Under the pieces are notes generated by a model. That model made no database searches. It was not told the DNA's origin and was given only the letters and a program-made list of their open reading frames with translations. A stretch of DNA of 64,000 bases from a virus (Duplodnaviria; Caudoviricetes): positions 1-64,000 of IMG/VR virus record IMGVR_UViG_3300018495_000076; one strand, given 5' to 3'. The translations under genes were made by a program, and so were the position numbers. This document shows positions 3,368 through 55,085 of the stretch, in pieces; within the stretch, counting starts at the first letter, position 1; each line of letters begins with the position of its first letter.

Positions 3368-4114
3368 TTATTTAATACCTAATAGTGTTTTCCATGTATT
3401 AAGTCCACAGCATCCATCGACCACAAGCCCATTTCTCTGTTGAAAATTTTTTATTGCGGTTTCTGTTTCCTTGCCGGCAAGACCGTCTGGCTTTATTCCA
3501 AGCAATCTTTGTACAAGCATTGTTGAGTTTTTATATTTGTAAAATAATCTTCTTTTAACAATACACTTCGTCGCAACGCTTTCGGTTTCATTTCCCCATT
3601 TGCCATCTAAGCCATATGAGTTAAATTTAAAACCATCTGCTGATGCTGCTCTTTGAAAAGATAATACAAGATTTTCATCTTCGTTGGTTGTAAACTTTTC
3701 TAGTGGAAATAGACTCCCTGGGCAATTAGTTGTCATTAAATCTTTATGACCTTTGACATTCTTTATATTGTATTTCTTTTTCAAGTGCTCCACAAGCTCT
3801 AATCCAGATTCGACTTGTACTTGTGTTGGCATTTCTTTTTCGAAATCTCCTTCAAAACATATTCCAATGCTTGTTGAATTATACCCTTTTGCATGAGATC
3901 CAATAACATCATCTTGTCTACCTCTAAATATTCTGCCCTCTTTGTTTATGAAGTAATGGTATCCACAACCACTCCATTGATTAGACAAATGCCAATTATG
4001 AATATTGTATATACTACAATGACTTGATGCTGCATGGTGTAATACTATCATATCAATCTTGCTTCTTTTAGCTAATGCACCTGCCCAATTTAGGTTTGTT
4101 TCAATAATGTTCAT
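3368..4114 (-). CDS. N-acetylmuramoyl-L-alanine amidase (Amidase_2/T7 lysozyme-like) with C-terminal peptidoglycan-binding domains
   Basis: IVLHHAA, GYHYFI, GSHAKGYNSTSIGICFEG, GHKD..TNCPG; PG_binding_1-like DGLAGKETETAIKNFQQRNGLVVDG. Confidence 0.9.
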   Translation of the reverse strand: MNIIETNLNWAGALAKRSKIDMIVLHHAASSHCSIYNIHNWHLSNQWSGCGYHYFINKEGRIFRGRQDDVIGSHAKGYNSTSIGICFEGDFEKEMPTQVQVESGLELVEHLKKKYNIKNVKGHKDLMTTNCPGSLFPLEKFTTNEDENLVLSFQRAASADGFKFNSYGLDGKWGNETESVATKCIVKRRLFYKYKNSTMLVQRLLGIKPDGLAGKETETAIKNFQQRNGLVVDGCCGLNTWKTLLGIK

Positions 4115-4357: not shown

Positions 4358-4432
4358 TGGCTGGGATGGAAGGGATCGAACCTTCGAATACAGGAGTCAA
4401 AGTCCTGTGCCTTACCACTTGGCGACATCCCA
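4358..4432 (-). tRNA. tRNA-Gln(TTG)
   Basis: Full cloverleaf, anticodon arm CAGGA-CT-TTG-AC-TCCTG, encoded CCA. Confidence 0.95.
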
Positions 4433-4575
4433 ATATATTGCGCTTTTAACTTCGATAGGAGCGCTAACCTATCAAGCAATCACCTTCATCCACTTTGGAG
4501 TCATACCAAGGTTGCTCGTATGATATGATTTTTGTTGACAAAAGCACACGAGTGTGTACGATTATCTGTGTAGCA

Positions 4576-4664
4576 TGGCGCCACATTGAGGTGTCGATCC
4601 CCATACCTTTCACAGTACCTTTCGTTTTCAAGACGAAGTGCGAAGCCGTCCGCATTAATGTGGC
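4576..4664 (-). tRNA. tRNA-Ser(TGA) with non-canonical 8/4 fold
   Basis: 8-bp acceptor GCCACATT/AATGTGGC, 4-bp T-stem GGGG/CCTC, long variable arm, G73-CCA. Confidence 0.8.
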
Positions 4665-4667
4665 ATT

Positions 4668-4756
4668 TGGCGGAAAGCGTAGTATTCGAAACTAATACAC
4701 TAAACATGTACGCATCCCTTAGCAGGGGAGCCGCAATCCTCTTGCGTTCACTTTCC
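4668..4756 (-). tRNA. tRNA-Ser(GCT) with non-canonical 8/4 fold
   Basis: 8-bp acceptor GGAAAGTG/CGCTTTCC, 4-bp T-stem TAGT/ACTA, long variable arm, G73-CCA. Confidence 0.8.
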
Positions 4757-4761
4757 ATATT

Positions 4762-5580
4762 AAGAGCCGAGTATTCTATTATCCATGGAAGCCCCTCGGC
4801 TGGGCTACTCTGTTATCCTGAGTAAGGTGTGTCCTTATCGGACTAAATGCATCAACCGCCGAAACGATTGAAGGAACCTTTTCTACTGCTAGTAGATAGG
4901 CACAATTTGGTTAACCAAAAGACAGTAACGATATGGACAAAGCCGGCTTCGAACCAACCTCACCAACAGCATCGTCCCTCACAATGCTTAGTGCCCAGTA
5001 TCTACATCTTTTGGTATACGATTTCTATCTAAGCATCGCAACGACACGTTCTCGTCTTCCGCCGCTGGCAGTTCATTAGCTTCCCACTTATCCCTCAATT
5101 CAATCCGTCCCCAGCACGCATGCTGTCGAGGGGGCCAACTACTTTTCGATAGTATTGTTGTTTATAGGCTGTTCATCTCACATCCATTTACCACAGCTGC
5201 TAGACCTCACCTTTATAATAGTATCGACCTATTTCCTGGATGTTTACTCGGGTTAACAGCCCGTCCCAGGCTTCGTGGCACCTATAATTAACTTTCTTGT
5301 TCTGGCGCCCTCAAGAGAAAGGGTTCGTTAATGTGCCATAACGATAGGCTCCCTCACAAAAACTATCTGGAGAATAACACCAAACAATCGCGGCTTGTAG
5401 CTGCCCGTTATGCCCAGCTTCTATATTCCCACTATGCCCTTCGCTACAAATTAAAGCGAGTTTTTTATAAACAAGTACTCACCCTCCCGATTCTCCAAGT
5501 GAGACATCTGCACGATTGACCCATAATATTCAACCCTTTTCGGTGTAACAAACAGATGTGACTATTTTATTGATCGTTCT
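4762..5580 (-). ncRNA. Large structured ncRNA, GOLLD-like candidate (boundaries approximate)
   Basis: ~820 nt between tRNA-Trp and tRNA-Ser, richer in GC than coding DNA, many hairpins, no credible ORF. Size and phage tRNA-array context fit GOLLD RNA. Confidence 0.55.
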
Positions 5581-5601
5581 TTTATCACAATACTTGTTCT
5601 T

Positions 5602-5676
5602 TGGCAGGAGTGGATTGAAATCGAACAATCGTCAACAGTTTTGGAGACTGTTGTGCTACCATTGCACCACACTCCT
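5602..5676 (-). tRNA. tRNA-Trp(CCA)
   Basis: Cloverleaf, ACAGT-CT-CCA-AA-ACTGT, encoded CCA. Confidence 0.92.
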
Positions 5677-5683
5677 ATATAAC

Positions 5684-5805
5684 TAGCCACCTTTATAAGA
5701 CGGGATTCGAACCCGCGTCTTCAGCTTTTCACGGCTGACGCTCTAACCTCTAAGCTACACTGGCAATGATGAAGCCAATAGAATTAAAGTTGCTGTAGGT
5801 GACTA
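5684..5805 (-). ncRNA. Y-RNA(YrlA)-like RNA: terminal helix+ACAGCAA module enclosing a circularly permuted tRNA domain
   Basis: TAGTCACC-TACAGCAA...GGTGGCTA terminal stem. Inside: hairpin-closed acceptor TATTGGC/GCCAGTG, D arm, anticodon arm with 8-nt loop, T arm GCGGG-TTCGAAT-CCCGT. Confidence 0.75.
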
Positions 5806-5881
5806 TGGAGCGAGATACCAGATTCGAACTGGCGCTTACTGCTTGGAAGGCAGTCGTGCTAGCCGCTAACACTAATCCCGC
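5806..5881 (-). tRNA. tRNA-Gly(TCC)
   Basis: Cloverleaf, ACTGC-CT-TCC-AA-GCAGT, U73-CCA. Confidence 0.93.
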
Positions 5882-5935
5882 ATATGTTGCCTTTTTACAG
5901 AAGGCTAACTGTTTCTGGAGGTATAGAATGAAAAG

Positions 5936-6012
5936 TGGTTGGCCCTTAGGGACTTGAACCCTAGACCGCCTCGTTATGAGCGAGATGCTCTAACCAACTG
6001 AGCTAAAGGCCA
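5936..6012 (-). tRNA. tRNA with CAT anticodon (Ile2-like, or elongator Met)
   Basis: Cloverleaf, TCTCG-CT-CAT-AA-CGAGG, A73-CCA. Confidence 0.9.
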
Positions 6013-6048
6013 ATATAGCATGGCTTTCGCCATACTTAGTTGTGGCAT

Positions 6049-6138
6049 TGGTGCCGGAGAACGGGCTCGAACCGTCACGGAGTGTTTAGTTCCACGGGAT
6101 TTTAAGTCCCGGGTGTCTGCCAATTCCACCACTCCGGC
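6049..6138 (-). tRNA. tRNA-Leu(TAA)
   Basis: Type II cloverleaf, CGGGA-CT-TAA-AA-TCCCG. Confidence 0.95.
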
Positions 6139-6142
6139 ATGT

Positions 6143-6217
6143 TGGTCGGGATGACAGGGATCGAACCTGCGTAAACCAGTCCCCAAAGCTGGTGGGCAAC
6201 CACTGCCCCACATCCCG
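6143..6217 (-). tRNA. tRNA-Pro(TGG)
   Basis: C1-G72, A73-CCA, anticodon loop TT-TGG-GG. Confidence 0.92.
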
Positions 6218-6221
6218 ATAT

Positions 6222-6303
6222 TGGTGCTCGTAACAGGACTTGAACCTGCACGAATTAACATATGATCCTAAGTCATACGCGTCTTCCATTCCGCCATACG
6301 AGC
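6222..6303 (-). tRNA. tRNA-Leu(TAG)
   Basis: Cloverleaf, TATGA-CT-TAG-GA-TCATA, A73-CCA. Confidence 0.93.
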
Positions 6304-6376
6304 ATATTACAGTCCTCAATTAGCTACTTCAAGAACTGCAACACTTTGTACAAAACTCGTGAGTGTATACCTCACT

Positions 6377-6421
6377 TGTTGCCAGCGACAGGATTTGAAC
6401 CTGCTCTAAGCCATAACTGGC
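6377..6421 (-). ncRNA. tRNA minihelix-like element (acceptor + T arm only)
   Basis: GCCAGT...GCAGG-TTCAAAT-CCTGT-C-GCTGGC-A-ACA; D and anticodon arms replaced by a ~10-nt linker. Confidence 0.55.
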
Positions 6422-6570
6422 ATATTCGTTGATTGAGCCATAGGATTTTCACCTATGGGAGCAAGCGTTATTAGGCGGCTAGCATACCTAATAACAGGCT
6501 TTACTAATTCTATCCCCACTTACCATTTTCTTGCTTTTTCACATCTTGTATTTTTAAGAGATTTTCTTTT

Positions 6571-6640
6571 TGGTCGCCCTCAGGAGATTCGAACTCCATC
6601 GCTGCACACCTGTGCCGCCGCTCTTACCCTTAAGCTATCG
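6571..6640 (-). ncRNA. tRNA-like element or pseudo-tRNA (D arm, T arm and CCA; no anticodon loop, unpaired acceptor)
   Basis: TA-GCTT-AAGGGTAA-GAGC, hairpin GCGGCAC-AGGT-GTGCAGC, GGAG-TTCGAAT-CTCC, ACCA. Confidence 0.55.
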
Positions 6641-6752
6641 TTAGACTAATCTCTGCAACCCTATCCTAGAGTTGTACGGACTCCTATGGATAGGTCGTAC
6701 TTGTTGCATACTTAATGTGGCTTTATACTCACTACTCAATCATTTTGTTTTG

Positions 6753-8312
6753 TTAAACAATGTCCTTAACTGCGTCCTCGATAGCTTGATATCTTTCGAC
6801 ATTAAGCACATCGAGCAAACATTCGTAAGGATCAAGTTTGTTAGACATCACCATTTTGACAATGTTAACACTAAATCCACTAACAAGGGCAACGCCGAGG
6901 CCATTTTCTTTGACAGGAATGGTACCGGTGCGAGAATTTACATTCCAGAACACAAGTCTAGGGAGCTTGTATCCATGTGCTTCGTACTTCTTAGCAATCG
7001 TCTCAAAGAGTGTTGCCGTAGGAGCTTCACGATATGAATACCAGCCACTAGAGCGAGTGGAATTTGTGGTGGCACAAGAGTCAAATTCCATATCAGACAC
7101 GATAAGAATATTAGTAGGAATATCCTCCTGGGCCATATGGTTATTCACTGCCGTCTGAAGAATCAAATCAAATACTGCCTCAATATTAGTGTTTGCACAC
7201 TCATTGTGTCTCAGAGCAATACCCAACTTATCATGAAGAGTCTTGGCGTTGCTAAAGTCAACAAACTGTGGTCTTTCACTAAAGGTGATATACTTATCCT
7301 TAAACTCACCAGAAGCTCTTTCAGCAAAATAAATAGCAAGAGCATTGGCAACATCAAGAGCAGTAACACTAGTCTGACCACCAACATTGACAGTCATGCT
7401 GCCGGAACCGTCTGCGACAACAAGTGTATTGCCATTGCCATTCACTGTGTCGGGCAGAGCTTTCCACATACCCTCAAGTGCGGCGTCATGTAATCTAACG
7501 GACTGACTCCACATACCACCAGACATGTACTTATGCACAATATCATGAGGAAACAAAACAGAAGCATTAATCTTAGCCTCGCCTTTTTCAAGCGCACCAA
7601 GATATGCTCTACGACGCTCCTCATCGTTGCAAAGGAATGCATTGTTGTAAATAAGATTTGCACGAGAAGGAACGGCCTCATAATTGATTCTACCCCATTC
7701 TCTTGCAGACATCTTACATTCAACCACGTCAATATACTTACGGAGTTTAGAGAGCATCTTACGATAGTTCTTTGATGTCATGCCAAGCCCATTGCGAATG
7801 ATAGTTGCATATCTCTTTGTTTCCTTGGAAGACGCATTCTCTGAAGGAAGCCACTTTCCAATAAGAGAGATAGATTTATTGTTCTCCATGTTAATTCTGT
7901 CTTCACCAAGCTGTTCTGCGACACCAGCAATGATGTTCTGCTTCAAATCTGTATCAAGAAGACACCACATATCGTCGTATCTACCATATTCAGATGTAAA
8001 CTTCAGCACTGCCTTGATTACCTCAGGCTTATTCTGAGCAAGGTGCTTAAGCACGATTCTAAACAGTCTTCTTTCGCCAAGACCCTCACGGCAGTCTCTA
8101 GTGTAAAAGAGCCACTTGATTGCCACAATAGGATCTTCCCAATAAGCGTCCATAAACTTATCGATAATCGTCTGTTCCAAAGCGCCTCTGAGAGAAGCAA
8201 CGGAGAAGTTAAGATCAAGCAGTTTCTTGCCTGTGCTTTTAAATCCAACAGCACCATTTTCGGTCAACTGCTTTTCGTTGTTAAGTTCATTTTTCATTGC
8301 ATTCATAAACAT
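6753..8312 (-). CDS. DUF2828-family protein (helical domain + C-terminal vWA; Ro60/TROVE-like architecture)
   Basis: TENGA, LFYTRDCREGLGERRLF, YGRYDD, KWLPSEN, INYEAVPSRA, MIDAS motif DGSGSM, NTNIEAVFDLIL, SDMEFD, FWNV, LVSGFS; GGAGG RBS before ATG 8312. Confidence 0.88.
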   Translation of the reverse strand: MFMNAMKNELNNEKQLTENGAVGFKSTGKKLLDLNFSVASLRGALEQTIIDKFMDAYWEDPIVAIKWLFYTRDCREGLGERRLFRIVLKHLAQNKPEVIKAVLKFTSEYGRYDDMWCLLDTDLKQNIIAGVAEQLGEDRINMENNKSISLIGKWLPSENASSKETKRYATIIRNGLGMTSKNYRKMLSKLRKYIDVVECKMSAREWGRINYEAVPSRANLIYNNAFLCNDEERRRAYLGALEKGEAKINASVLFPHDIVHKYMSGGMWSQSVRLHDAALEGMWKALPDTVNGNGNTLVVADGSGSMTVNVGGQTSVTALDVANALAIYFAERASGEFKDKYITFSERPQFVDFSNAKTLHDKLGIALRHNECANTNIEAVFDLILQTAVNNHMAQEDIPTNILIVSDMEFDSCATTNSTRSSGWYSYREAPTATLFETIAKKYEAHGYKLPRLVFWNVNSRTGTIPVKENGLGVALVSGFSVNIVKMVMSNKLDPYECLLDVLNVERYQAIEDAVKDIV

Positions 8313-8351
8313 TTGATTGTCCTCCAAAATTGAATTTTTATAAAACAATCC

Positions 8352-8412
8352 AAGACACATTTGGTTATATAGATTAAAAGTCTATTCCAGTTAAGATTGC
8401 TGTCTGTGTCTT
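8352..8412 (-). ncRNA. Free-standing helix+ACAGCAA RNA module, copy A (in the DUF2828 leader)
   Basis: AAGACACA-GACAGCAA...TGTGTCTT, 8-bp terminal stem. Confidence 0.7.
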
Positions 8413-8430
8413 AAGATATCGTTTACATAC

Positions 8431-8577
8431 GAGATACCATAATTGTAATTAATTTAAACTAGGTTTAAATTGGCTATTGTCAGTCAATGCCTAAAACACA
8501 AGTATATTCCGCTTGGCATAACCGCGAATTAATTTCATCACTTACTATAATGTTATTAAAATTGCTGTAGGTATCTC
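8431..8577 (-). ncRNA. Free-standing helix+ACAGCAA RNA module, copy B
   Basis: GAGATACC-TACAGCAA...GGTATCTC, 8-bp terminal stem. Confidence 0.7.
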
Positions 8578-8587
8578 TTTGTTAAGC

Positions 8588-8644
8588 AAGACGCATTTAA
8601 CTTCAATCCCACTTTGAATTATATAAAATTGCTGTGTGCGTCTT
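8588..8644 (-). ncRNA. Free-standing helix+ACAGCAA RNA module, copy C
   Basis: AAGACGCA-CACAGCAA...TGCGTCTT, 8-bp terminal stem. Confidence 0.7.
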
Positions 8645-8651
8645 TAAATTA

Positions 8652-8780
8652 TGGTTGAGAGGGTTGGATTCGAACCAACGAGGCACAATGCCGATGGATT
8701 TACAGTCCAGAACATTGCTGCGTAGTCTCTATCAAGACTAACATAAGGCTCCATTGCGTTTACCACTTCGCCACCTCTCA
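8652..8780 (-). tRNA. tRNA-Tyr(GTA) with a 44-nt insertion in the anticodon stem (8708-8751)
   Basis: Removing the insert gives an 85-nt tRNA-Tyr with ATGGA-CT-GTA-AA-TCCAT. The insert holds hairpin TAGTCT/AGACTA followed by CGCAGCAA. Confidence 0.85.
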
Positions 8781-8785
8781 TTATT

Positions 8786-8906
8786 TGTTGCACGGAGTAG
8801 GATTCGAACCTACGGCACCAGGCACCCGAACGCATTGTAAATTTGCAGTTTAGGTTTATGTCTAAACCCAATTATTACTGTGCTCTACCAGCTGAGCTAT
8901 CCGTGC
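8786..8906 (-). tRNA. tRNA-like gene with a 44-nt anticodon-stem insertion (8834-8877); 8-nt loop GTTCGGGT, identity ambiguous (Arg TCG or Pro CGG); ends in ACA
   Basis: Acceptor GCACGGA/TCCGTGC, canonical D and T arms. CAG|GC rejoins to pair with GCCTG. The insert holds hairpin GGGTTTA/TAAACCT followed by AAACTGCAA. Confidence 0.7.
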
Positions 8907-47873: not shown

Positions 47874-50693
47874 AGTTTTATACCTTCCTTTTGGCATTGT
47901 TGCCTTTTTTCTTTTGTGTTTTTTTGGTTTAGTTGCGAATAAGTTCGCTCGGTTCAATTGTTTCTTCGGTGAAGTCTTCAACATAAGCCCAATTGTGTTC
48001 ACCTCGTTCGTTATCAACGAGTTCACAATTGTATCCCTTTTGGCAGTTCTCCCATATGAAGTCTTGCACCTCATAGAAATTGTCGGTTTCAAGGCTGTCC
48101 ATAAGTCCAGCAAAGTTTGTGCACAGATACGCTTTAACGATGTATCTCATAGTCCGTTCCTCCTTTCATTAATGATCCCATTCAGGGAAATATGCAGACC
48201 AAACGGGAATGCCGTCATGGTCAAGATATACCATATGCATTGCAGGTTTCCATCCTGCATAGTTGACAATTTGCCCTTGCCAACAAATGCAGGTTACTCT
48301 TTCGTCGGTAAGGTCATCAAATGCGATTTTGCGGCTGACTTCCGTGAAGAACTTGTCCTTGCTTGTTTGCAGATGTACGATGTGCTCTTCGCCCTCGCAG
48401 TCGGTGTAGATATAAAAGCACGGCTTGTTAATTCGAGAAGCATAGATATGAGTAATTAATCCTTCTAGACAATTCTCAATTTTTTCAAGTTTTATGGTGT
48501 TATGCAGACCAATATCTCCATCCATGATGTCGTGTGCTTTTTGGTATTCGGCAAATATTTCACTCACTTTGTCATGGATCAGTTCTTTCAAGTCAAATTC
48601 CCTTTTGGGGCAGTCTTGAAAATCCTCCCATTCAAGAACCGTATAGCCGTTTTCTTTAGCAGACTGGATATCGCCCACTCTGCCGTCATTGAAGTAGTAG
48701 ACGGTTCTCTCTTTGTAATACTTACTCCAATTGTCTTTTCTGACATAGCTATCACCACTATGCCAAATTCTGCCGTTTTCGTGAAGGAGTGCACAAAATT
48801 CTTGTGCTGCTTCTTCTGTTTTGGTATGCATAACGAACTTTCCGTTTCTGTAATTTTCAATGTTAAATTTTTTCATTTTCTTAATTCCTTTCTTTAATGG
48901 TTTCCGTAACACACTTTGTTGTTCAATGTGTTACGGAAATGTTTGTTGTTGGTGTTGTGTAATTTTTGGTGTGATACTTAGAATCCGTTACGGTTGTATT
49001 TCCAACGGATATCGAGCACCTTGAACTGTGTCCAAGATTCCCATGCTTGCTTGAGTACATCTGTGCAGTTTTCAACGATATTACCCATTGTGAGTGATTT
49101 CCATCTGTAAATAATACCTTTTTGAGTGTTTTTCATTTGTAATTTCCTCCGTTTAAGTTGTTGTTAATTGTTTCCATAACCCATTATAAATCATTCTGTC
49201 GTGTAATGTGTTACGGAAATGTAAATTTTGTTTGTTACGCTATTGCTTTACCAAGCAGATCGTATCTCTGGTCCGCAGTCAGCTTGTCGTCGTTCATGAT
49301 CTCGTAGCATTTTACGAACACGATAAGATCATCAAATTCCTCACTGATATCGTTGATTAATTCTTCCTCATTGTTCACAACATCTCGATACTCATATGGA
49401 TCATAATCTTCCAAAAACTCATTGATTTGCTCGGCAAGATAACGTTTGTCGTTTTCCCTGAGTTCATCCCATATGTGGCTATAAGCGCCAATTCCGTAAA
49501 GATGTTGAACACCATCAATGGTTTTTATATCTTCGCCCTTCCAAATGTATGGCTCGTCGCAGTCATCATACTGGATGACGAATGCGTCAGCGTCCTCATC
49601 ATAAATCATTGGACTGTCATCGTTATGCCATTCGGACATAATTTTGAGTGCCTCATCAAATGTGAAGTACGGTGTCGCCCATCCATTCCACAAGTAGCCA
49701 CTTGTGTATCCGATGTATAAATGCCCTCCATCAATGTAGAATACTGATTTTTTCATAAAATTCCTCCTTATGCGACATTGCGCAGATTAAAAATGAAATT
49801 CAATGCGGCTTTACAAGTATCAAACAGATATATTGTGCCGTTTACGGTTACAAGATACTTGTTATCAACTTTCTTGAATGTGATTTTCATGGGTATAATT
49901 CCTTTCTCCCCGTATTGCCGATAGGTCAGCTTGTAAATTAGTCTTCGTTGTGTTCTCTTTCTTGCAGTTCGTCCAAGATGTCGAGTGCCTTGTTACGGCA
50001 TTCACCTTTGCCTACCATAACAAGTTCTTTTTTTGCAGACTCATAAAAGCCTGCACGAGCAAGGTCATACCATGCATGACCCCATGTTCTGTGGGTGTTG
50101 CAAATGTCCCACAAGCAGTCCTTGAGGTGTTCTGTACCCCAATAACCACTGTCGGCCTTTCCCTTCACGTAACCTTTTACTCTTGCGGAAAGTCTTGCCA
50201 TATATATACCTCCTTGCCACGACCTTAACTGCCCAATCGAGTGGGTTCAGTGGTTTATGTGGCTGTGCTTTATATGACTTGTGTGCTTGTTTAAGCCCAC
50301 AATGAAGCCCTTGACCATTTGCACAGTCAAGAGCTCGATGTAGGTTTAAGCATTACATGACGCGGCAAAGTGCATTGACACCGTTGTAAATCAAGCCGTC
50401 AATGCCGAGAAAATACTGTGTACCGTTCTTGTAGATGATGAACTTGTCAGGCTGACAAACAGAACCAAAGCCACACCATTCAATGCGACAATGTCTGCTT
50501 TTTGCAAGCTTGCACACTTTTGCGAACAATTCGTTGCATACAGCTTCTTGGGTACGCCAATTGCCATACATACGAACTTCATACAGTTCCTTGCAAAGTT
50601 CAATCATTTCGGTCGTTTTGTTGCCCATAAGAGCACGGATAGTTTTGTACATAAGTACCTCCGACAGTAGGTTGTCAGCCGTAAATTTTCACT

Positions 50694-50743
50694 GACAGTT
50701 TCGCTCTTGCTTGTCAGCGTCGGACTTTTACCGACGGACTGTC
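50694..50743 (-). ncRNA. Type III hammerhead-like element with core variant G8A (possibly inactive)
   Basis: GACAG-TC-CGTCGG-TAAAAGT-CCGACG-CTGACAA-GC-AAGA-GC-GAAA-CTGTC. Confidence 0.6.
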
Positions 50744-52469: not shown

Positions 52470-52545
52470 AATTAAACCTCCTTTGTGCCTTGTGCGCATA
52501 GGCTATGACATTGCGTGTACCTATGCAAGGCTATAATATTTTATT

Positions 52546-52612
52546 AGCCGTTAGCCGTGCTTATGCACGTTGCCCACCCTACACTATCGTGGAAGTCGGC
52601 TTGTTGTAGGGT
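52546..52612 (-). ncRNA. HDV-like self-cleaving ribozyme
   Basis: P1 ACCCTAC/GTAGGGT, P2 AGCCG/CGGCT, P3 ACT/AGT, L3 TCCACGAT, P1.1 CC/GG, GCAA, P4 CGTGC/GCACG, J4/2 GCTAA with catalytic C. Confidence 0.88.
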
Positions 52613-52645
52613 TAGGCAGTTTATACTCATACCCAGGAGTGTGTG

Positions 52646-52939
52646 TTAACCAAGACAACGAACCATGCGTTTGAAGATGTCAATGTCCTTGAAGGACTTG
52701 ATGTAGCCACTATGGATGTAAGTATCGTTATCACGAATGGATACCCATAACACACCGTTTTTCATTCTGTCTACTACCACGATGATCTTGCGCTCGTCAT
52801 CTTGGCGCACACCAAAGAAGTCGAACCATAGACACTCTCCTTCACGCTTGAGTGTGCGTCTATCGTATGTGAAGTACCTATCCACATAAGATACGAGTTT
52901 ATTGGTGTTTGTTCTGGAAACTTTGAAAAACATAATCAT
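52646..52939 (-). CDS. Hypothetical early protein
   Basis: AGGAG RBS before ATG 52939. Confidence 0.65.
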   Translation of the reverse strand: MIMFFKVSRTNTNKLVSYVDRYFTYDRRTLKREGECLWFDFFGVRQDDERKIIVVVDRMKNGVLWVSIRDNDTYIHSGYIKSFKDIDIFKRMVRCLG

Positions 52940-52966
52940 TCTCCTTTTGCCTATTGGCGTTAATGT

Positions 52967-53013
52967 GGCAATTCGCATGCACCCTCGCCTCGTGAAGGCT
53001 TGCCCATGAGGGT
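52967..53013 (-). ncRNA. Minimal (P4-less) HDV-like ribozyme
   Basis: P1 ACCCTC/GAGGGT, P2 GGCAA/TTGCC, P3 GCC/GGC, L3 TTCACGA, J4/2 GCGAA. Confidence 0.75.
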
Positions 53014-53055
53014 ATCCATTTTTACGAGTTGGAATTTCAAGCTATCTCGTGTGTG

Positions 53056-53304
53056 CTATAAGTTAGCGCATAATTGGCAAAGCAACTTGTTGACATAGCC
53101 TTGTGGGTACAAGGTTAATGTGTATTTGTCCCTACAAGCACCAATCAGTTCCTCGACATCCATGTCGTCGAATGCCCACACAATCTCGTGATTGCGTGTA
53201 ATGATACCGTTAATTTCGTCGTATGCGTCTACCACATATGCGTCACCAAAGCACCAATATCTTGTGCCCCAATTGTAGTTGACTTTTGCTATTTGCTTGT
53301 ACAT
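53056..53304 (-). CDS. Hypothetical early protein
   Basis: AGGAGAG RBS; 82 aa. Confidence 0.65.
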   Translation of the reverse strand: MYKQIAKVNYNWGTRYWCFGDAYVVDAYDEINGIITRNHEIVWAFDDMDVEELIGACRDKYTLTLYPQGYVNKLLCQLCANL

Positions 53305-53324
53305 AAATCATCTCTCCTTTGCAA

Positions 53325-53377
53325 TCCGTTTCGGCTCATGCCATCATCGGCTCATGGACTTTTACCACGAGGACGGA
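53325..53377 (-). ncRNA. Type III hammerhead ribozyme (U4C core variant)
   Basis: TCCG-TC-CTCGTGG-TAAAAGT-CCATGAG-CCGATGA-T-GGC-ATGA-GCC-GAA-ACGGA; GUC cleavage triplet. Confidence 0.75.
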
Positions 53378-53411
53378 AGGCAGTTTATGCTCGTGCCTGG
53401 GAGCGTAGGTG

Positions 53412-53729
53412 TTAGTGTGACACATGTGTGATAGTGTCGTCGGTAACATCGAATGTGTACTGCGTATCAAAGTACACGGTTACGAGTGTGCCGTTGTCAA
53501 GATTGGTGGTGTAGTCCCAAATGTGTCCATCAGCAGTGATTATTGTGCCGTCTTCGTAGTATGTGCCCTCTTGAGTGCGTTCGCCCATAAGCACACACCA
53601 ACAGTTCCAATCAGCATAGATGGGATTGTGGCGAGTGTTTTTGCATACCACCTCGATGGTGCTTACGAGCATCCATGCGAGGACGAGCACGAATACGAGT
53701 GTGAATGCGTTGCTGATAAATTTTTTCAT
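53412..53729 (-). CDS. Hypothetical protein with N-terminal membrane anchor
   Basis: MKKFISNAFTLVFVLVLAWMLV; AGGAG RBS. Confidence 0.7.
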   Translation of the reverse strand: MKKFISNAFTLVFVLVLAWMLVSTIEVVCKNTRHNPIYADWNCWCVLMGERTQEGTYYEDGTIITADGHIWDYTTNLDNGTLVTVYFDTQYTFDVTDDTITHVSH

Positions 53730-53782
53730 GGTTTTTCTCCTTTGCCCACTCACGAAATGGGACTTGTGAATTTTGTTTTAGG

Positions 53783-53850
53783 CGTGACTTCGGATGCATA
53801 AGCACCCAAACGCACTTGGCTTAACACGGTTTAGCCTCCCCAAGTGGAGG
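53783..53850 (-). ncRNA. Pistol self-cleaving ribozyme
   Basis: P1 CCTCC/GGAGG with loop ACTTGG; CTAAA; P2 CGTG/CACG; TTAAG; pseudoknot strand CCAAGT; GCGT; P3 TTGGGTGC/GCATCCGA; A-GU cleavage site. Confidence 0.9.
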
Positions 53851-53884
53851 GAGCAGTTTATGCACTTGCTCAGGTGCATGGGTG

Positions 53885-54409
53885 TTAGCGAACACTCTCC
53901 CAGTATGTCCAACCTTCAGAGCCAATCTGTGCAGACATGTTGTGCTTGCGAAGGACGGAAGCAACTGCCTTATTGGCTTCTCTGCCTTTGCCTGCATAGG
54001 TATCAATCCCAATCTGCCACTCAGCCTTGGTAGGCTTGGGATCACCCTTGCCAGCGGGTCTGCGAGCACGAAGCTTTGCCTTAGGCTTTTCTGCTTTGGG
54101 TTGTTCATCGGTTTCACTCTTGGGTGCCTCTGTGTGCATAGGGTAAAGCAATCCATCACTGTCGAAATGCCCAATGGCAGTCCACTGGAAGGTCTTCTCC
54201 TTCGTGCATTCGAGAGCGCAAAGCGTGTTCTCGTACTTTACGAGATTCCACAAAGCAACCTTGTTGGCATCCTTGCCACCTTTGATGGTGCTTGTTATGC
54301 ACACACATGTCTGGGTGTAGTATGCTTCGTTTGTGAAGCGAACTGCACCTGCTTTTTCTGCGGCTGTGTATGCGCCTGCGAGTGTCTTGTAAGTCTTGTT
54401 GGTTTTCAT
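53885..54409 (-). CDS. Hypothetical early protein (C-terminal W.YW.S.R domain, paralog 1)
   Basis: AGGAGG RBS; ends AGKGREANKAVASVLR...GWTYWESVR. Confidence 0.75.
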   Translation of the reverse strand: MKTNKTYKTLAGAYTAAEKAGAVRFTNEAYYTQTCVCITSTIKGGKDANKVALWNLVKYENTLCALECTKEKTFQWTAIGHFDSDGLLYPMHTEAPKSETDEQPKAEKPKAKLRARRPAGKGDPKPTKAEWQIGIDTYAGKGREANKAVASVLRKHNMSAQIGSEGWTYWESVR

Positions 54410-54473
54410 AGTACCTCCTTTGCCCATATGGGCGTGCTCGGTTTATGCACATGAACTGGTGCGTGAATTTTGT

Positions 54474-54543
54474 GTCCCGCTCTGCCTTGACAAGACGAAG
54501 TCTTGCCTCACGGACTTGCGACCGTCGTTGGTGGCATTAAGAC
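54474..54543 (-). ncRNA. Twister ribozyme (type P1 with P5)
   Basis: P1 GTCT/GGAC; TAA; P2 TGCC/GGCA; ACC; P4 ACGG/CCGT with loop TCGCAAGT; P5 GGCAAGAC/GTCTTGTC; GAGCG. Both pseudoknot pairings (AC/GT, CGC/GCG) are retained. Confidence 0.9.
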
Positions 54544-54572
54544 GCCCCCACCCGAAGGTGAGGGCATGTGTG

Positions 54573-55085
54573 TTAGCGAATGGACTTCCAATAGTCCCAC
54601 TCTGCACCGTTGGGTTCAATGCCGAACTCGCGGATGATTGCGGCTGCCTGCTTGTTCGCGCTCTTGCCCTTGCCTGCGAGCTTGTCGAGTTTTTTCAGCA
54701 ACTTGGCATTGCCCTTGCCGTTTGTGCGCTTGGGTGCGTTCACGGGCATGAGCACGCAGCCGTCGCCGTTAGCCGTGCCTTGAATCGTGTATTCCTTGCC
54801 GTCCATCAAGTCCTCGTACTCACGAGCGGGATCGTATGCCTCGGCGCGCTCGGACTTGGGCACATACGCTGCGTGAGCCTCGGCATAGTCTGCTCTGAAC
54901 TTTTTTGCTACGGATTCTGCCGTTTTGACGGAGTCAAATGTTACGGCTACGAAGCCTTCGGCAGTTTTGGCGATTTCGGTGTTGTGGTCTTGGGCGAGCT
55001 GCACGAGCGCCTTGTATGCGCCGTACGGCAGGTACGCGGTTGCGGTAAGGGTGTTCTGGGTTCTCTTAATCAAATTCTTAGACAT
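54573..55085 (-). CDS. First gene of the leftward operon (C-terminal W.YW.S.R domain, paralog 2)
   Basis: AGGAGG RBS; ends AGKGKSANKQAAAIIR...EWDYWKSIR. Confidence 0.75.
   Translation of the reverse strand: MSKNLIKRTQNTLTATAYLPYGAYKALVQLAQDHNTEIAKTAEGFVAVTFDSVKTAESVAKKFRADYAEAHAAYVPKSERAEAYDPAREYEDLMDGKEYTIQGTANGDGCVLMPVNAPKRTNGKGNAKLLKKLDKLAGKGKSANKQAAAIIREFGIEPNGAEWDYWKSIR

Follow-up and report, generated by a model that had tools for sequence, protein, structure and literature searches.

A Covarying 28-nt Pseudoknot Ahead of Phage Ribozyme-Like Elements Belongs to a Widespread Family

A small H-type pseudoknot is present in three copies (PK1, PK2, and PK3) on the minus strand of the first 64,000 nt of the phage record IMGVR_UViG_3300018495_000076 (Duplodnaviria; Caudoviricetes) from IMG/VR. 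This whole stretch is called the window in the following. The three copies share a 28-nt architecture: a 4-bp stem (P1) encloses an 8-nt loop, the linker AUAAAC follows, and the next 5–6 nt pair with loop positions 2–7 to form a second stem (S2). Covariation in hundreds of homologues from other phages showed that this fold is a real pseudoknot. The copies in the window stand directly between a stop codon and a ribozyme-like element. We consider it quite possible, if short of probable, that the pseudoknot is a nuclease-resistant structured cap, which would end the upstream mRNA after ribozyme cleavage.

Three Copies of the Pseudoknot in the Window

A first-pass annotation of the window had listed five copies of the pseudoknot. 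Three of these, PK1–PK3, were recovered by a covariance model (R1), which was built from 148 sequences of other phage contigs and contained no sequence from the window. R1 matched exactly these three places in the window, with 36.8 bits (E = 2e-8) for PK1, 16.4 bits (E about 0.01) for PK2, and 43.5 bits (E = 2.7e-10) for PK3. The same three copies were recovered from the whole phage record of 174,761 bp, in which the only other R1 match with E < 0.1, at 2883–2903 (16.5 bits), was without the loop. A strict pattern scan of the whole record also found PK2 together with PK1 and PK3, plus only one 4-bp match that looked like a chance hit. PK3 has the canonical form of the family and is an exact match to a pattern that occurs at at least 120 IMG/VR loci. 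When the motif was searched by its loose verbal definition, dozens of matches were obtained on both strands of the window. This definition is, therefore, not significant alone, and the significance of the window copies comes from the strict architecture together with the homologues elsewhere.

Sequence variants of PK1 were found in related contigs. The homologue in contig L114 has a compensated P1 (GCUC/GAGC) and UAGGUA as S2a, and in a bovine-gut contig the variant 52631 A>G converts a G.U pair of the PK1 S2 into a G-C pair. The nearest-neighbor energies were −2 to −5 kcal/mol for P1 and −5 to −7 kcal/mol for the S2 duplex.

The fourth copy that had been listed, at 53015–53049, may be accepted as a divergent relative. 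R1 did not match it, and its loop length lies outside the family definition given below. In the homologous contig L114/L470, a single compensatory change in its 4-bp S2 replaces UCCA/UGGA by UCCC/GGGA, and variants of its linker are present in contigs X8 and X9. The fifth copy, at 54436–54462, was not confirmed as a member of the family. It has the stem, an 8-nt loop, and AUAAAC, but the letters behind the linker do not pair in register with the loop. The only pairing there is an offset one of 4 bp that includes a G.U pair, and no R1 match was obtained at E ≤ 10.

Both Stems Covary in Other Phages

We scanned IMG/VR with three patterns, each of which gave at least 120 loci; the counts on other phages given in this text are among the matches listed. 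In the first scan the loop, the linker, and S2 were fixed, in the second scan P1 and the linker were fixed while the loop and S2 were free, and in the third scan both stems were fixed while the loop segments L1, L2, and L3 were free. Since other positions were free in each scan, the three scans give unbiased views of these positions in turn. The family was defined by a 4-bp P1 closed by a C-G pair, a loop of 8 nt with C as its first letter, the linker NWAAAC (6 nt), and 5–6 nt pairing with loop positions 2–7. All of these features are present in PK1, PK2, and PK3. The 28 nt thus comprise 4 bp of P1, one invariant C as L1, 5–6 bp of S2, 1 nt as L2, and NWAAAC as L3.

With P1 and the linker fixed, 97 of the 129 listed matches paired in register over 5–6 consecutive positions. 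The S2 pair types included UGAGCA/UGCUCA, UAAGCA/UGCUUA, UAGGCA/UGCCUA, UGAACA/UGUUCA, UGAGUA/UACUCA, and UGGUUA/UAACUA. All six S2 pairs changed on both sides in a set of 90 distinct rows, from which rows arising by chance were not removed. Two-sided changes were counted in 64 cells, compared to 21.9 ± 3.8 in shuffled sets, and none of 500 shuffles reached the observed value. The covariation score for S2 was 0.215, while slid controls reached at most 0.095. A very similar result was obtained for P1 in the scan with fixed S2: 93.5% of the cells were paired, all four pairs changed on both sides, and two-sided changes were found in 106 cells versus 37.3 ± 3.9 in shuffles, a value that was again reached in 0 of 500 cases. 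These results confirmed the earlier view of an H-type pseudoknot with two covarying stems.

A relaxed structural scan of the collected loci gave 427 matches versus 9 in reversed sequence, and another control of this kind gave 115 versus 0. A chance origin was rejected on the basis of these controls. Up to eight copies were found within 15 kb, all on one strand. A protein-coding signal was rejected as the general case, since most copies lie 5–10 nt behind a stop codon and the covariation of paired positions is unlike that of coding sequence. A palindrome for protein binding at the DNA level was also rejected, as the conservation lies in the spacer and not in the stem, which varies. Readings as boxA-like, RNase P/CCA-like, or type III antitoxin-like elements were dropped, since the flanking letters that such features require are not general and the copies are not arranged in tandem.

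The unpaired positions were strongly conserved when both stems were fixed. L1 was C in 70/70 listed matches, L2 was U or A in 68/70, and L3 comprised six letters in 65/70 and ended in AAAC in 65/70; the linker variant CUAAAC accounted for 15/70. The composition of S2 is restricted to URRGYA/URCYYA, and P1 is often identical within one phage, as for AGAC/GUCU, which occurs six times in contig L204. Such invariant unpaired positions and restricted stems could mean that a protein, an RNase, or a small ligand specifically recognizes the motif, which might then be an operator like that of gene 32, a processing signal, or an aptamer like that of the preQ1-I riboswitch. Since the same sequence occurs in phages or prophage-like contigs assigned to many bacterial phyla and beside unrelated genes, a site for a phage-specific protein, as considered in the first-pass annotation, is unlikely. 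The single nucleotide of L2 leaves no obvious pocket, and no riboswitch family matched the motif. The invariant C and the AAAC would most simply be tertiary contacts of a compact pseudoknot, by analogy to the pseudoknots of luteoviruses and of the gene 32 leader of T-even phages. We regard a recognition site as quite unlikely.

Distribution of the Family

The motif was found in contigs of phages or prophage-like elements that are assigned to many phyla. It is present in named phages of bacteria of the Roseobacter group (including roseophage SIO1), of Clostridium tetani, and of Erwinia, and also in crAss-like phages. At the motif copies of the window, Rfam 15 gave no hit, neither at the gathering score nor at E ≤ 10 over 8 kb. 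Five canonical loci and a 71-nt stretch of phage SIO1 had no Rfam match either, RAGATH families included, and a 61-nt stretch of the window gave a 9.9-bit chance match on the other strand only. The RAGATH-type match that had been suggested for the motif was, thus, not found, even at E ≤ 10 on stretches of 60–70 nt. A description of the motif was not found in the literature, in which supplements, subscription journals, and the 2015 paper defining the RAGATH motifs could hold one. The motif is very widespread among phages and apparently undescribed. It would be among the commonest structured RNAs of phages, and yet it stands outside every Rfam family.

The pseudoknot sequence also occurs as CRISPR spacers in two arrays. 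Three such spacers are located in a single array of the 'Ca. Tepidiaquacella' genome L279 (1772–3060) and one in the Cloacimonadota contig L255 (at about 5078).

Position of the Pseudoknot Relative to Genes

In 116 of 177 distinct instances, an open reading frame (ORF) of at least 60 codons ended within 60 nt upstream of the motif. Of these 116 cases, 20 had a gap of 5 nt between ORF end and P1, 25 had a gap of 6 nt, and 35 had a gap of 7–10 nt; the gap exceeded 10 nt in 36 cases and was never below 4 nt. When any stop codon was counted (338 contexts), a distance of 5 nt was found in 72 and of 6 nt in 68 contexts, compared to 14–32 contexts for other distances. Neighboring long ORFs were almost always on the same strand, and they were located upstream in 189/294 contexts versus downstream in 101/294. 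Convergent neighbors were found in nine cases and divergent neighbors in two. Upstream genes that recurred and could be named encode ribonucleotide reductase, DUF932 proteins, Hsp20, and a gp2.5-like SSB, while the downstream context varies. In phage SIO1 and in Lentibacter phages the motif follows the ribonucleotide reductase gene.

The sharp mode of 5–6 nt between stop codon and P1 could indicate a link to translation. The pseudoknot might act on the ribosome that terminates just upstream, by pausing, by a block of re-initiation, or by recoding, or it might dock on the platform of the 30S subunit as a standby or enhancer site for a start codon 15–30 nt downstream. A spacing of 5–6 nt is used by frameshift and readthrough pseudoknots. 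The next start codon was never closer than 15 nt, and the phages of many phyla that carry the motif would fit a universal partner such as the ribosome. However, the spacing has a broad tail beyond 10 nt, 61/177 instances are without a nearby ORF end, and spacer lengths show no 3-nt periodicity. In the window, readthrough would meet a stop after 8 codons at PK2 and after 4 codons at PK3, with no common extension, and the ribozymes would sever the pseudoknot from the downstream start. Reading past the stop at PK1 continues for 32 codons through the ribozyme. Neither a slippery heptamer nor a common frame extension was present in the sequence at the window copies, which have spacers of 5–7 nt. 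An action on translation is, in our view, improbable.

Downstream of the motif, a ribosome-binding site (RBS) with a start codon within 45 nt was found in 64/177 instances, a U-run directly after the motif in 27/177, a tRNA in 7/177, an extended −10-like box in 7/177, and a twister ribozyme in 2/177. The remaining 70/177 were unclassified and include terminator-like hairpins, promoters, and one HDV-like (hepatitis delta virus-like) element. S2 followed at once by a U-run could represent a compact intrinsic terminator or a pause site, and several copies are located just ahead of promoter-like extended −10 boxes. On the other hand, 150/177 instances lack a U-run. This is also the case for the copies in the window, and no terminator-like site was called on the minus strand at 52.4–54.6 kb. 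We consider a function as a transcription element very unlikely.

The motif is always located 5' of the structured elements it adjoins. A tRNA began 1–13 nt after the pseudoknot in 18/348 contexts and was directly upstream in 0/348; two upstream tRNAs were found, both 46 nt away. Twisters begin 0–1 nt after the pseudoknot in contigs L247 (Lachnospira) and L250 (Selenomonadaceae), and an HDV-like element stands directly after it in contig L114. This arrangement would be expected for a folding insulator, that is, a self-contained spacer that shields a downstream ribozyme, tRNA, or RBS from the upstream coding sequence and from terminating ribosomes. Sequence that precedes an HDV ribozyme can cause it to misfold, an effect that a hairpin placed upstream can relieve. 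Further points in favor of an insulator are the start codon 15–30 nt away in 53 of the 96 instances for which a start was called downstream, the low G content of the 8 nt after the motif (3–12%), which suggests an unpaired stretch, and the plain hairpin that replaces the pseudoknot before the twister-like element of the window. Unlike the 3' cap, an insulator would also account for the copies in 5' untranslated regions (UTRs). However, many copies have nothing to insulate, as they are followed by U-runs, promoter-like boxes, or terminator-like hairpins or, in nine cases, lie between convergent genes. Moreover, insulation would not require a pseudoknot, since a plain hairpin or even an unstructured spacer would suffice, and the invariant C and AAAC across many phyla would not be explained. 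An insulator is possible, although we doubt that it is the main function.

In at least 25 contigs the motif lies in a 5' UTR, where it is preceded by a −10-like box with one or two leader hairpins and often followed by a small zinc-ribbon-like gene. In contig L250, two copies lie in frame (…CPEHDVKLL…) within short ORFs of 46–47 codons with a strong RBS (183–323 and 2394–2540). Several of the differences between these two ORFs are synonymous, which suggests that in this lineage the motif may overlap real small genes. One group of freshwater-type phages (L126, L127, L137, L182, and L206) has a −10-like box about 90 nt before the motif. Two hairpins lie within the roughly 100 nt behind this box, then comes the pseudoknot, and the next promoter-like box directly adjoins it. 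Judged from this order, a small non-coding transcript may end in the pseudoknot in this group.

Elements Downstream of the Pseudoknots in the Window

All pseudoknot and ribozyme features of the window, as well as the genes at 49.8–55.2 kb, are located on the minus strand. Five spacers in this region, each located between small genes, have a common layout: the stop codon is followed by a C/A-rich stretch of 5–8 nt (CACAC, CACCUAC, CACCCA, CACACA, and CACACAUG), a compact structure, a ribozyme-like element, and the RBS GCAAAGGAG. The compact structure is the pseudoknot in four of the five spacers and an 8-bp UUCG hairpin in the fifth. The stop codon ahead of these four pseudoknot copies is UAA in three cases, at distances of 5, 7, and 6 nt, and UAG in the remaining one, at 6 nt. 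Between pseudoknot and next element the gap is 0 nt, or 0–2 nt for the divergent copy. The placement of four copies between a stop codon and the next element, as proposed earlier, was, therefore, correct. The features are listed in Table 1.

Table 1. Pseudoknots, hairpins, and ribozyme-like elements in the window.
Feature	Position	Strand	Sequence or basis
PK1	52613..52640	−	ACUC / CUGGGUAU / GAGU / AUAAAC / UGCCUA; S2 6 bp, 2 G.U
PK2	53378..53404	−	GCUC / CCAGGCAC / GAGC / AUAAAC / UGCCU; S2 5 bp
PK3	53851..53878	−	(U)GCAC / CUGAGCAA / GUGC(A) / (A)UAAAC / UGCUC; S2 5 bp
Divergent pseudoknot	53015..53049	−	CGAG / 17-nt loop / CUCG / UAAAAA / UGGA; S2b UGGA pairs with the last letters of the loop, UCCA
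Look-alike hairpin, separated by 11 nt from the twister-like element upstream; part of the following gene's 5' UTR	54436..54462	−	GCAC/GUGC, loop CAGUUCAU, AUAAAC
UUCG hairpin, 8 bp, G+C-rich	54545..54564	−	Sequence; between stop 54573–54575 (+8 nt) and the twister-like element
Pistol ribozyme, first base directly after PK3	53783..53850	−	Rfam RF02679, 38.5 bits (gathering score 34.5)
HDV-like ribozyme candidate, first base directly after PK1	52544..52612	−	Rfam HDV-F-prausnitzii, 36.8 bits, below gathering score (44)
Twister-P1-like element	54474..54543	−	Rfam RF03160, 33.2 bits, below gathering score (67.2)
Hammerhead-like candidate, type III topology, expected cut 6 nt after PK2	53325..53377	−	Read by eye
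Minimal HDV-like candidate that lacks P4, behind the divergent pseudoknot	52967..53014	−	Read by eye

The pistol ribozyme was the only ribozyme in the window above the Rfam gathering score. The HDV-like and the twister-like elements remained below this threshold, and the elements behind the pseudoknots at 53378 and 53015 had no Rfam match at E ≤ 10, so that the earlier designation of all these elements as ribozymes went too far. The HDV-like candidate has a homologue with a longer P4 in contig L114. The hammerhead-like element shows one deviation from the CUGANGA core. A paralogue of this element is located at about 50694–50743 on the minus strand; it has the same type III topology with UAAAAGU as the loop of stem I, likewise one deviation from this core, and no Rfam match at E ≤ 10. 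The P2 stem of the minimal HDV-like candidate carries a compensatory G-C to A-U change in comparison to contig L114 (L114/L470). This candidate resembles the theta ribozymes, minimal HDV-like ribozymes that were described for gut phages (PMC10879173).

The pseudoknot had also been described as paired with every ribozyme. This was too strong, since plain hairpins and not the pseudoknot precede the twister-like element and the hammerhead-like element near 50.7 kb. Nor is the motif an accessory of ribozymes in general: a recognizable ribozyme followed only 3/177 instances in other phages (two twisters and one HDV-like element). We concluded that the link to ribozymes is real in the window and recurs elsewhere, but does not define the element.

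A Structured 3' Cap as the Favored Reading

Two of the functions proposed in the first-pass annotation, a protector of 3' ends and the folding insulator discussed above, are still the leading explanations. Both fit the order of stop codon, 5–7 nt, pseudoknot, 0–1 nt, and cleaving element. For the 3' cap, the fold is established by covariation, and the placement and the wide distribution were observed directly. Cleavage at the expected sites, resistance to nucleases, and an effect on half-life are steps that we infer, as follows. The gene block would be transcribed into one long minus-strand RNA, in which the pseudoknot would cap the 3' end of each cistron. A ribosome that completes the upstream gene would stop 5–7 nt short of P1. 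Since the ribosome opens mRNA structure some 11 nt away from the P site, the minimum of 5 nt after the stop would fit a fold that stays closed during termination, with 5–7 nt being about the closest possible placement. The ribozyme starting 0–1 nt after S2 would then cleave. The upstream mRNA would end in the pseudoknot plus a tail of 0 nt (HDV-like element), of about 6 nt (hammerhead-like element), or consisting of the folded body of the pistol, and this end would carry a 2',3'-cyclic phosphate. Lacking a single-stranded tail, it would offer 3'→5' exonucleases no place for binding and starting, so that both the message and the stop codon would stay intact, with the stop kept away from the end. 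Within the pseudoknot, one nucleotide would cross the deep groove of the 6-bp stem, and six A-rich nucleotides would cross the minor groove of the 4-bp stem.

The sequence of the block is consistent with mRNA ends that are made by cleavage. The 5.6-kb block holds 0 promoter-like (sigma-70-like) sites, where 6.6 ± 2.4 would be expected, and terminator-like sites on the minus strand are absent from its pseudoknot spacers; cleavage would, therefore, make the mRNA ends. Our preference for a cap is also based on the plain hairpins that substitute for the pseudoknot before two ribozyme-like elements, on the tRNAs that occur on one side only, and on the recurring upstream genes.

Several observations weigh against a cap. 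The 5' UTR instances, at least 25 in number, have no upstream cistron to protect, and the 64/177 instances with an RBS and start codon downstream have no known cutter in between. The pistol presumably cuts about 55 nt further on, so that the pseudoknot would not be terminal in this case. In view of the modest stem energies, strong resistance would need tertiary contacts. The two copies inside short ORFs of L250 do not lie behind a cistron, and two of the four 'ribozymes' downstream of the window copies are without Rfam support.

A more far-reaching version of the cap appears doubtful to us. According to this version, the motif would be a new, host-independent RNA 'bookend' of phages: a 28-nt pseudoknot of the triplex type, which would be the bacterial counterpart of viral exonuclease-resistant RNAs but act against 3'→5' enzymes. 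In phages of many phyla it would punctuate polycistronic transcripts together with any cutter, be it a ribozyme, RNase P acting at a tRNA, or an endonuclease of the host, and the same scaffold would have given rise to the pistol ribozyme by insertion of a catalytic hairpin.

A review describes the biological role of self-cleaving ribozymes in phages as still open. A partner element located exactly at the cut site leads to a testable model, in which ribozymes would split a long transcript into messages with pre-capped 3' ends. The motif would also be useful for annotating gene ends, could provide a small natural part for stabilizing or insulating RNA, and is a clue to the origin of the pistol ribozyme.

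Comparison to Known RNA Structures

Among known structures, one part of the pistol ribozyme (RF02679), comprising its P1 hairpin, pseudoknot, and A-rich linker, came closest to the motif, and PK3 stands directly in front of a pistol. The Rfam consensus of the pistol has a 4-bp P1, an 8-nt loop, and an AUAAA-type linker, as in the motif. The linker in the pistol of the window is CUAAAC, which also occurs as a linker variant of the motif, and the pistol loop CACUUGGG finds its pairing partner in CCAAGUG further downstream. However, the pistol has a further helix strand and 4–5 nt between the linker and the 3' strand of the pseudoknot, followed by the catalytic hairpin and the cleavage site, whereas the 3' strand of the motif follows the linker directly, P2 and P3 are absent, and nothing catalytic is attached. 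L1 is C in the motif and G in the pistol consensus. The Rfam pistol model matched only 53783–53850 and none of the motif copies, even at E ≤ 10. The motif is, therefore, not a pistol but may share its scaffold.

The pseudoknots of the T-even gene 32 leader and of luteovirus frameshift sites comprise about 28–35 nt and have a first loop of one nucleotide and an A-rich last loop. The motif has a similar size and the same topology, in which the single nucleotide crosses the deep groove and the A-rich loop follows the minor groove of stem 1. In T-even phages, the gene 32 pseudoknot is also located between cistrons and upstream of an RBS. These pseudoknots are devices of single genes, used for autoregulation by gp32 or, together with a slippery site, for frameshifting, while the motif occurs beside unrelated genes with up to eight copies per 15 kb.

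Structures that block 3'→5' exonucleases include REP elements, the stem-loops that RNase III leaves behind in T7 mRNAs, and the added pseudoknots of prime-editing guide RNAs. The latter are engineered small H-type pseudoknots that serve as 3' protection, the role proposed here for the motif. Intercistronic stabilizers are likewise repeated structured elements between cistrons or at 3' ends. To our knowledge, natural stabilizers of bacteria and phages are hairpins and not pseudoknots, and we know of none that is paired with self-cleaving ribozymes. By analogy, the motif would work most like the intercistronic stabilizers or the guide-RNA pseudoknots, although it belongs to neither family.

The preQ1-I riboswitch (RF00522) also combines a short P1, an A-rich 3' tail ending AAAC-like, and a 3' strand that pairs back to the loop. 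The motif differs by having 1 nt between S2 and P1, without such a ligand pocket. No Rfam match to preQ1-I was obtained, and the neighboring genes were unrelated, with no association with queuosine genes.

Gene Block and Further Elements

The block at 49.8–55.2 kb has a G+C content of 45–47%, compared to about 36% elsewhere, and the coding strand switches near 55.2–56 kb. The nine proteins of the block had no PHROG or PADLOC match and no Pfam match beyond one below the threshold. No relatives were found via a neighboring protein of 225 amino acids, and a 2.8-kb region had no match in a collection of named phages. The proteins of 170 amino acids (54573–55085, minus strand) and 180 amino acids (53885–54427, minus strand) resemble each other at their C-terminal ends (…EWDYWKSIR and …GWTYWESVR), so that these tails may be paralogous. 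Nine clustered tRNA matches are located at 4361–8906 on the minus strand; the one at 8789–8906 has a 56-nt insertion in the anticodon arm, and the one at 5699–5758 is partial.

In the bovine-gut contig X8, the gene ends and PK3 align with the window. Unaligned letters of similar length replace 53773–53850 (pistol), 52540–52716 (PK1 and HDV-like element), and 53386–53637 (part of PK2). As judged from this alignment, the ribozyme spacers may be swapped as modules.

Two further elements recur in the spacers. A second conserved leader element (…CAUAAACCACUGAACC…GGCAGUUAAGGU…) is located directly before the RBS at about 50215–50270 on the minus strand, and it is also present in the Lachnospira contig L247 (about 4050–4105), where it follows a twister. 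An A-rich box, ACAAAAUUCAC, stands after the twister-like element (54463–54473) and after the pistol (53765–53782) on the minus strand, and its variant ACACCAAAAAAUCAC is found after the twisters in contig L250 (134–152).

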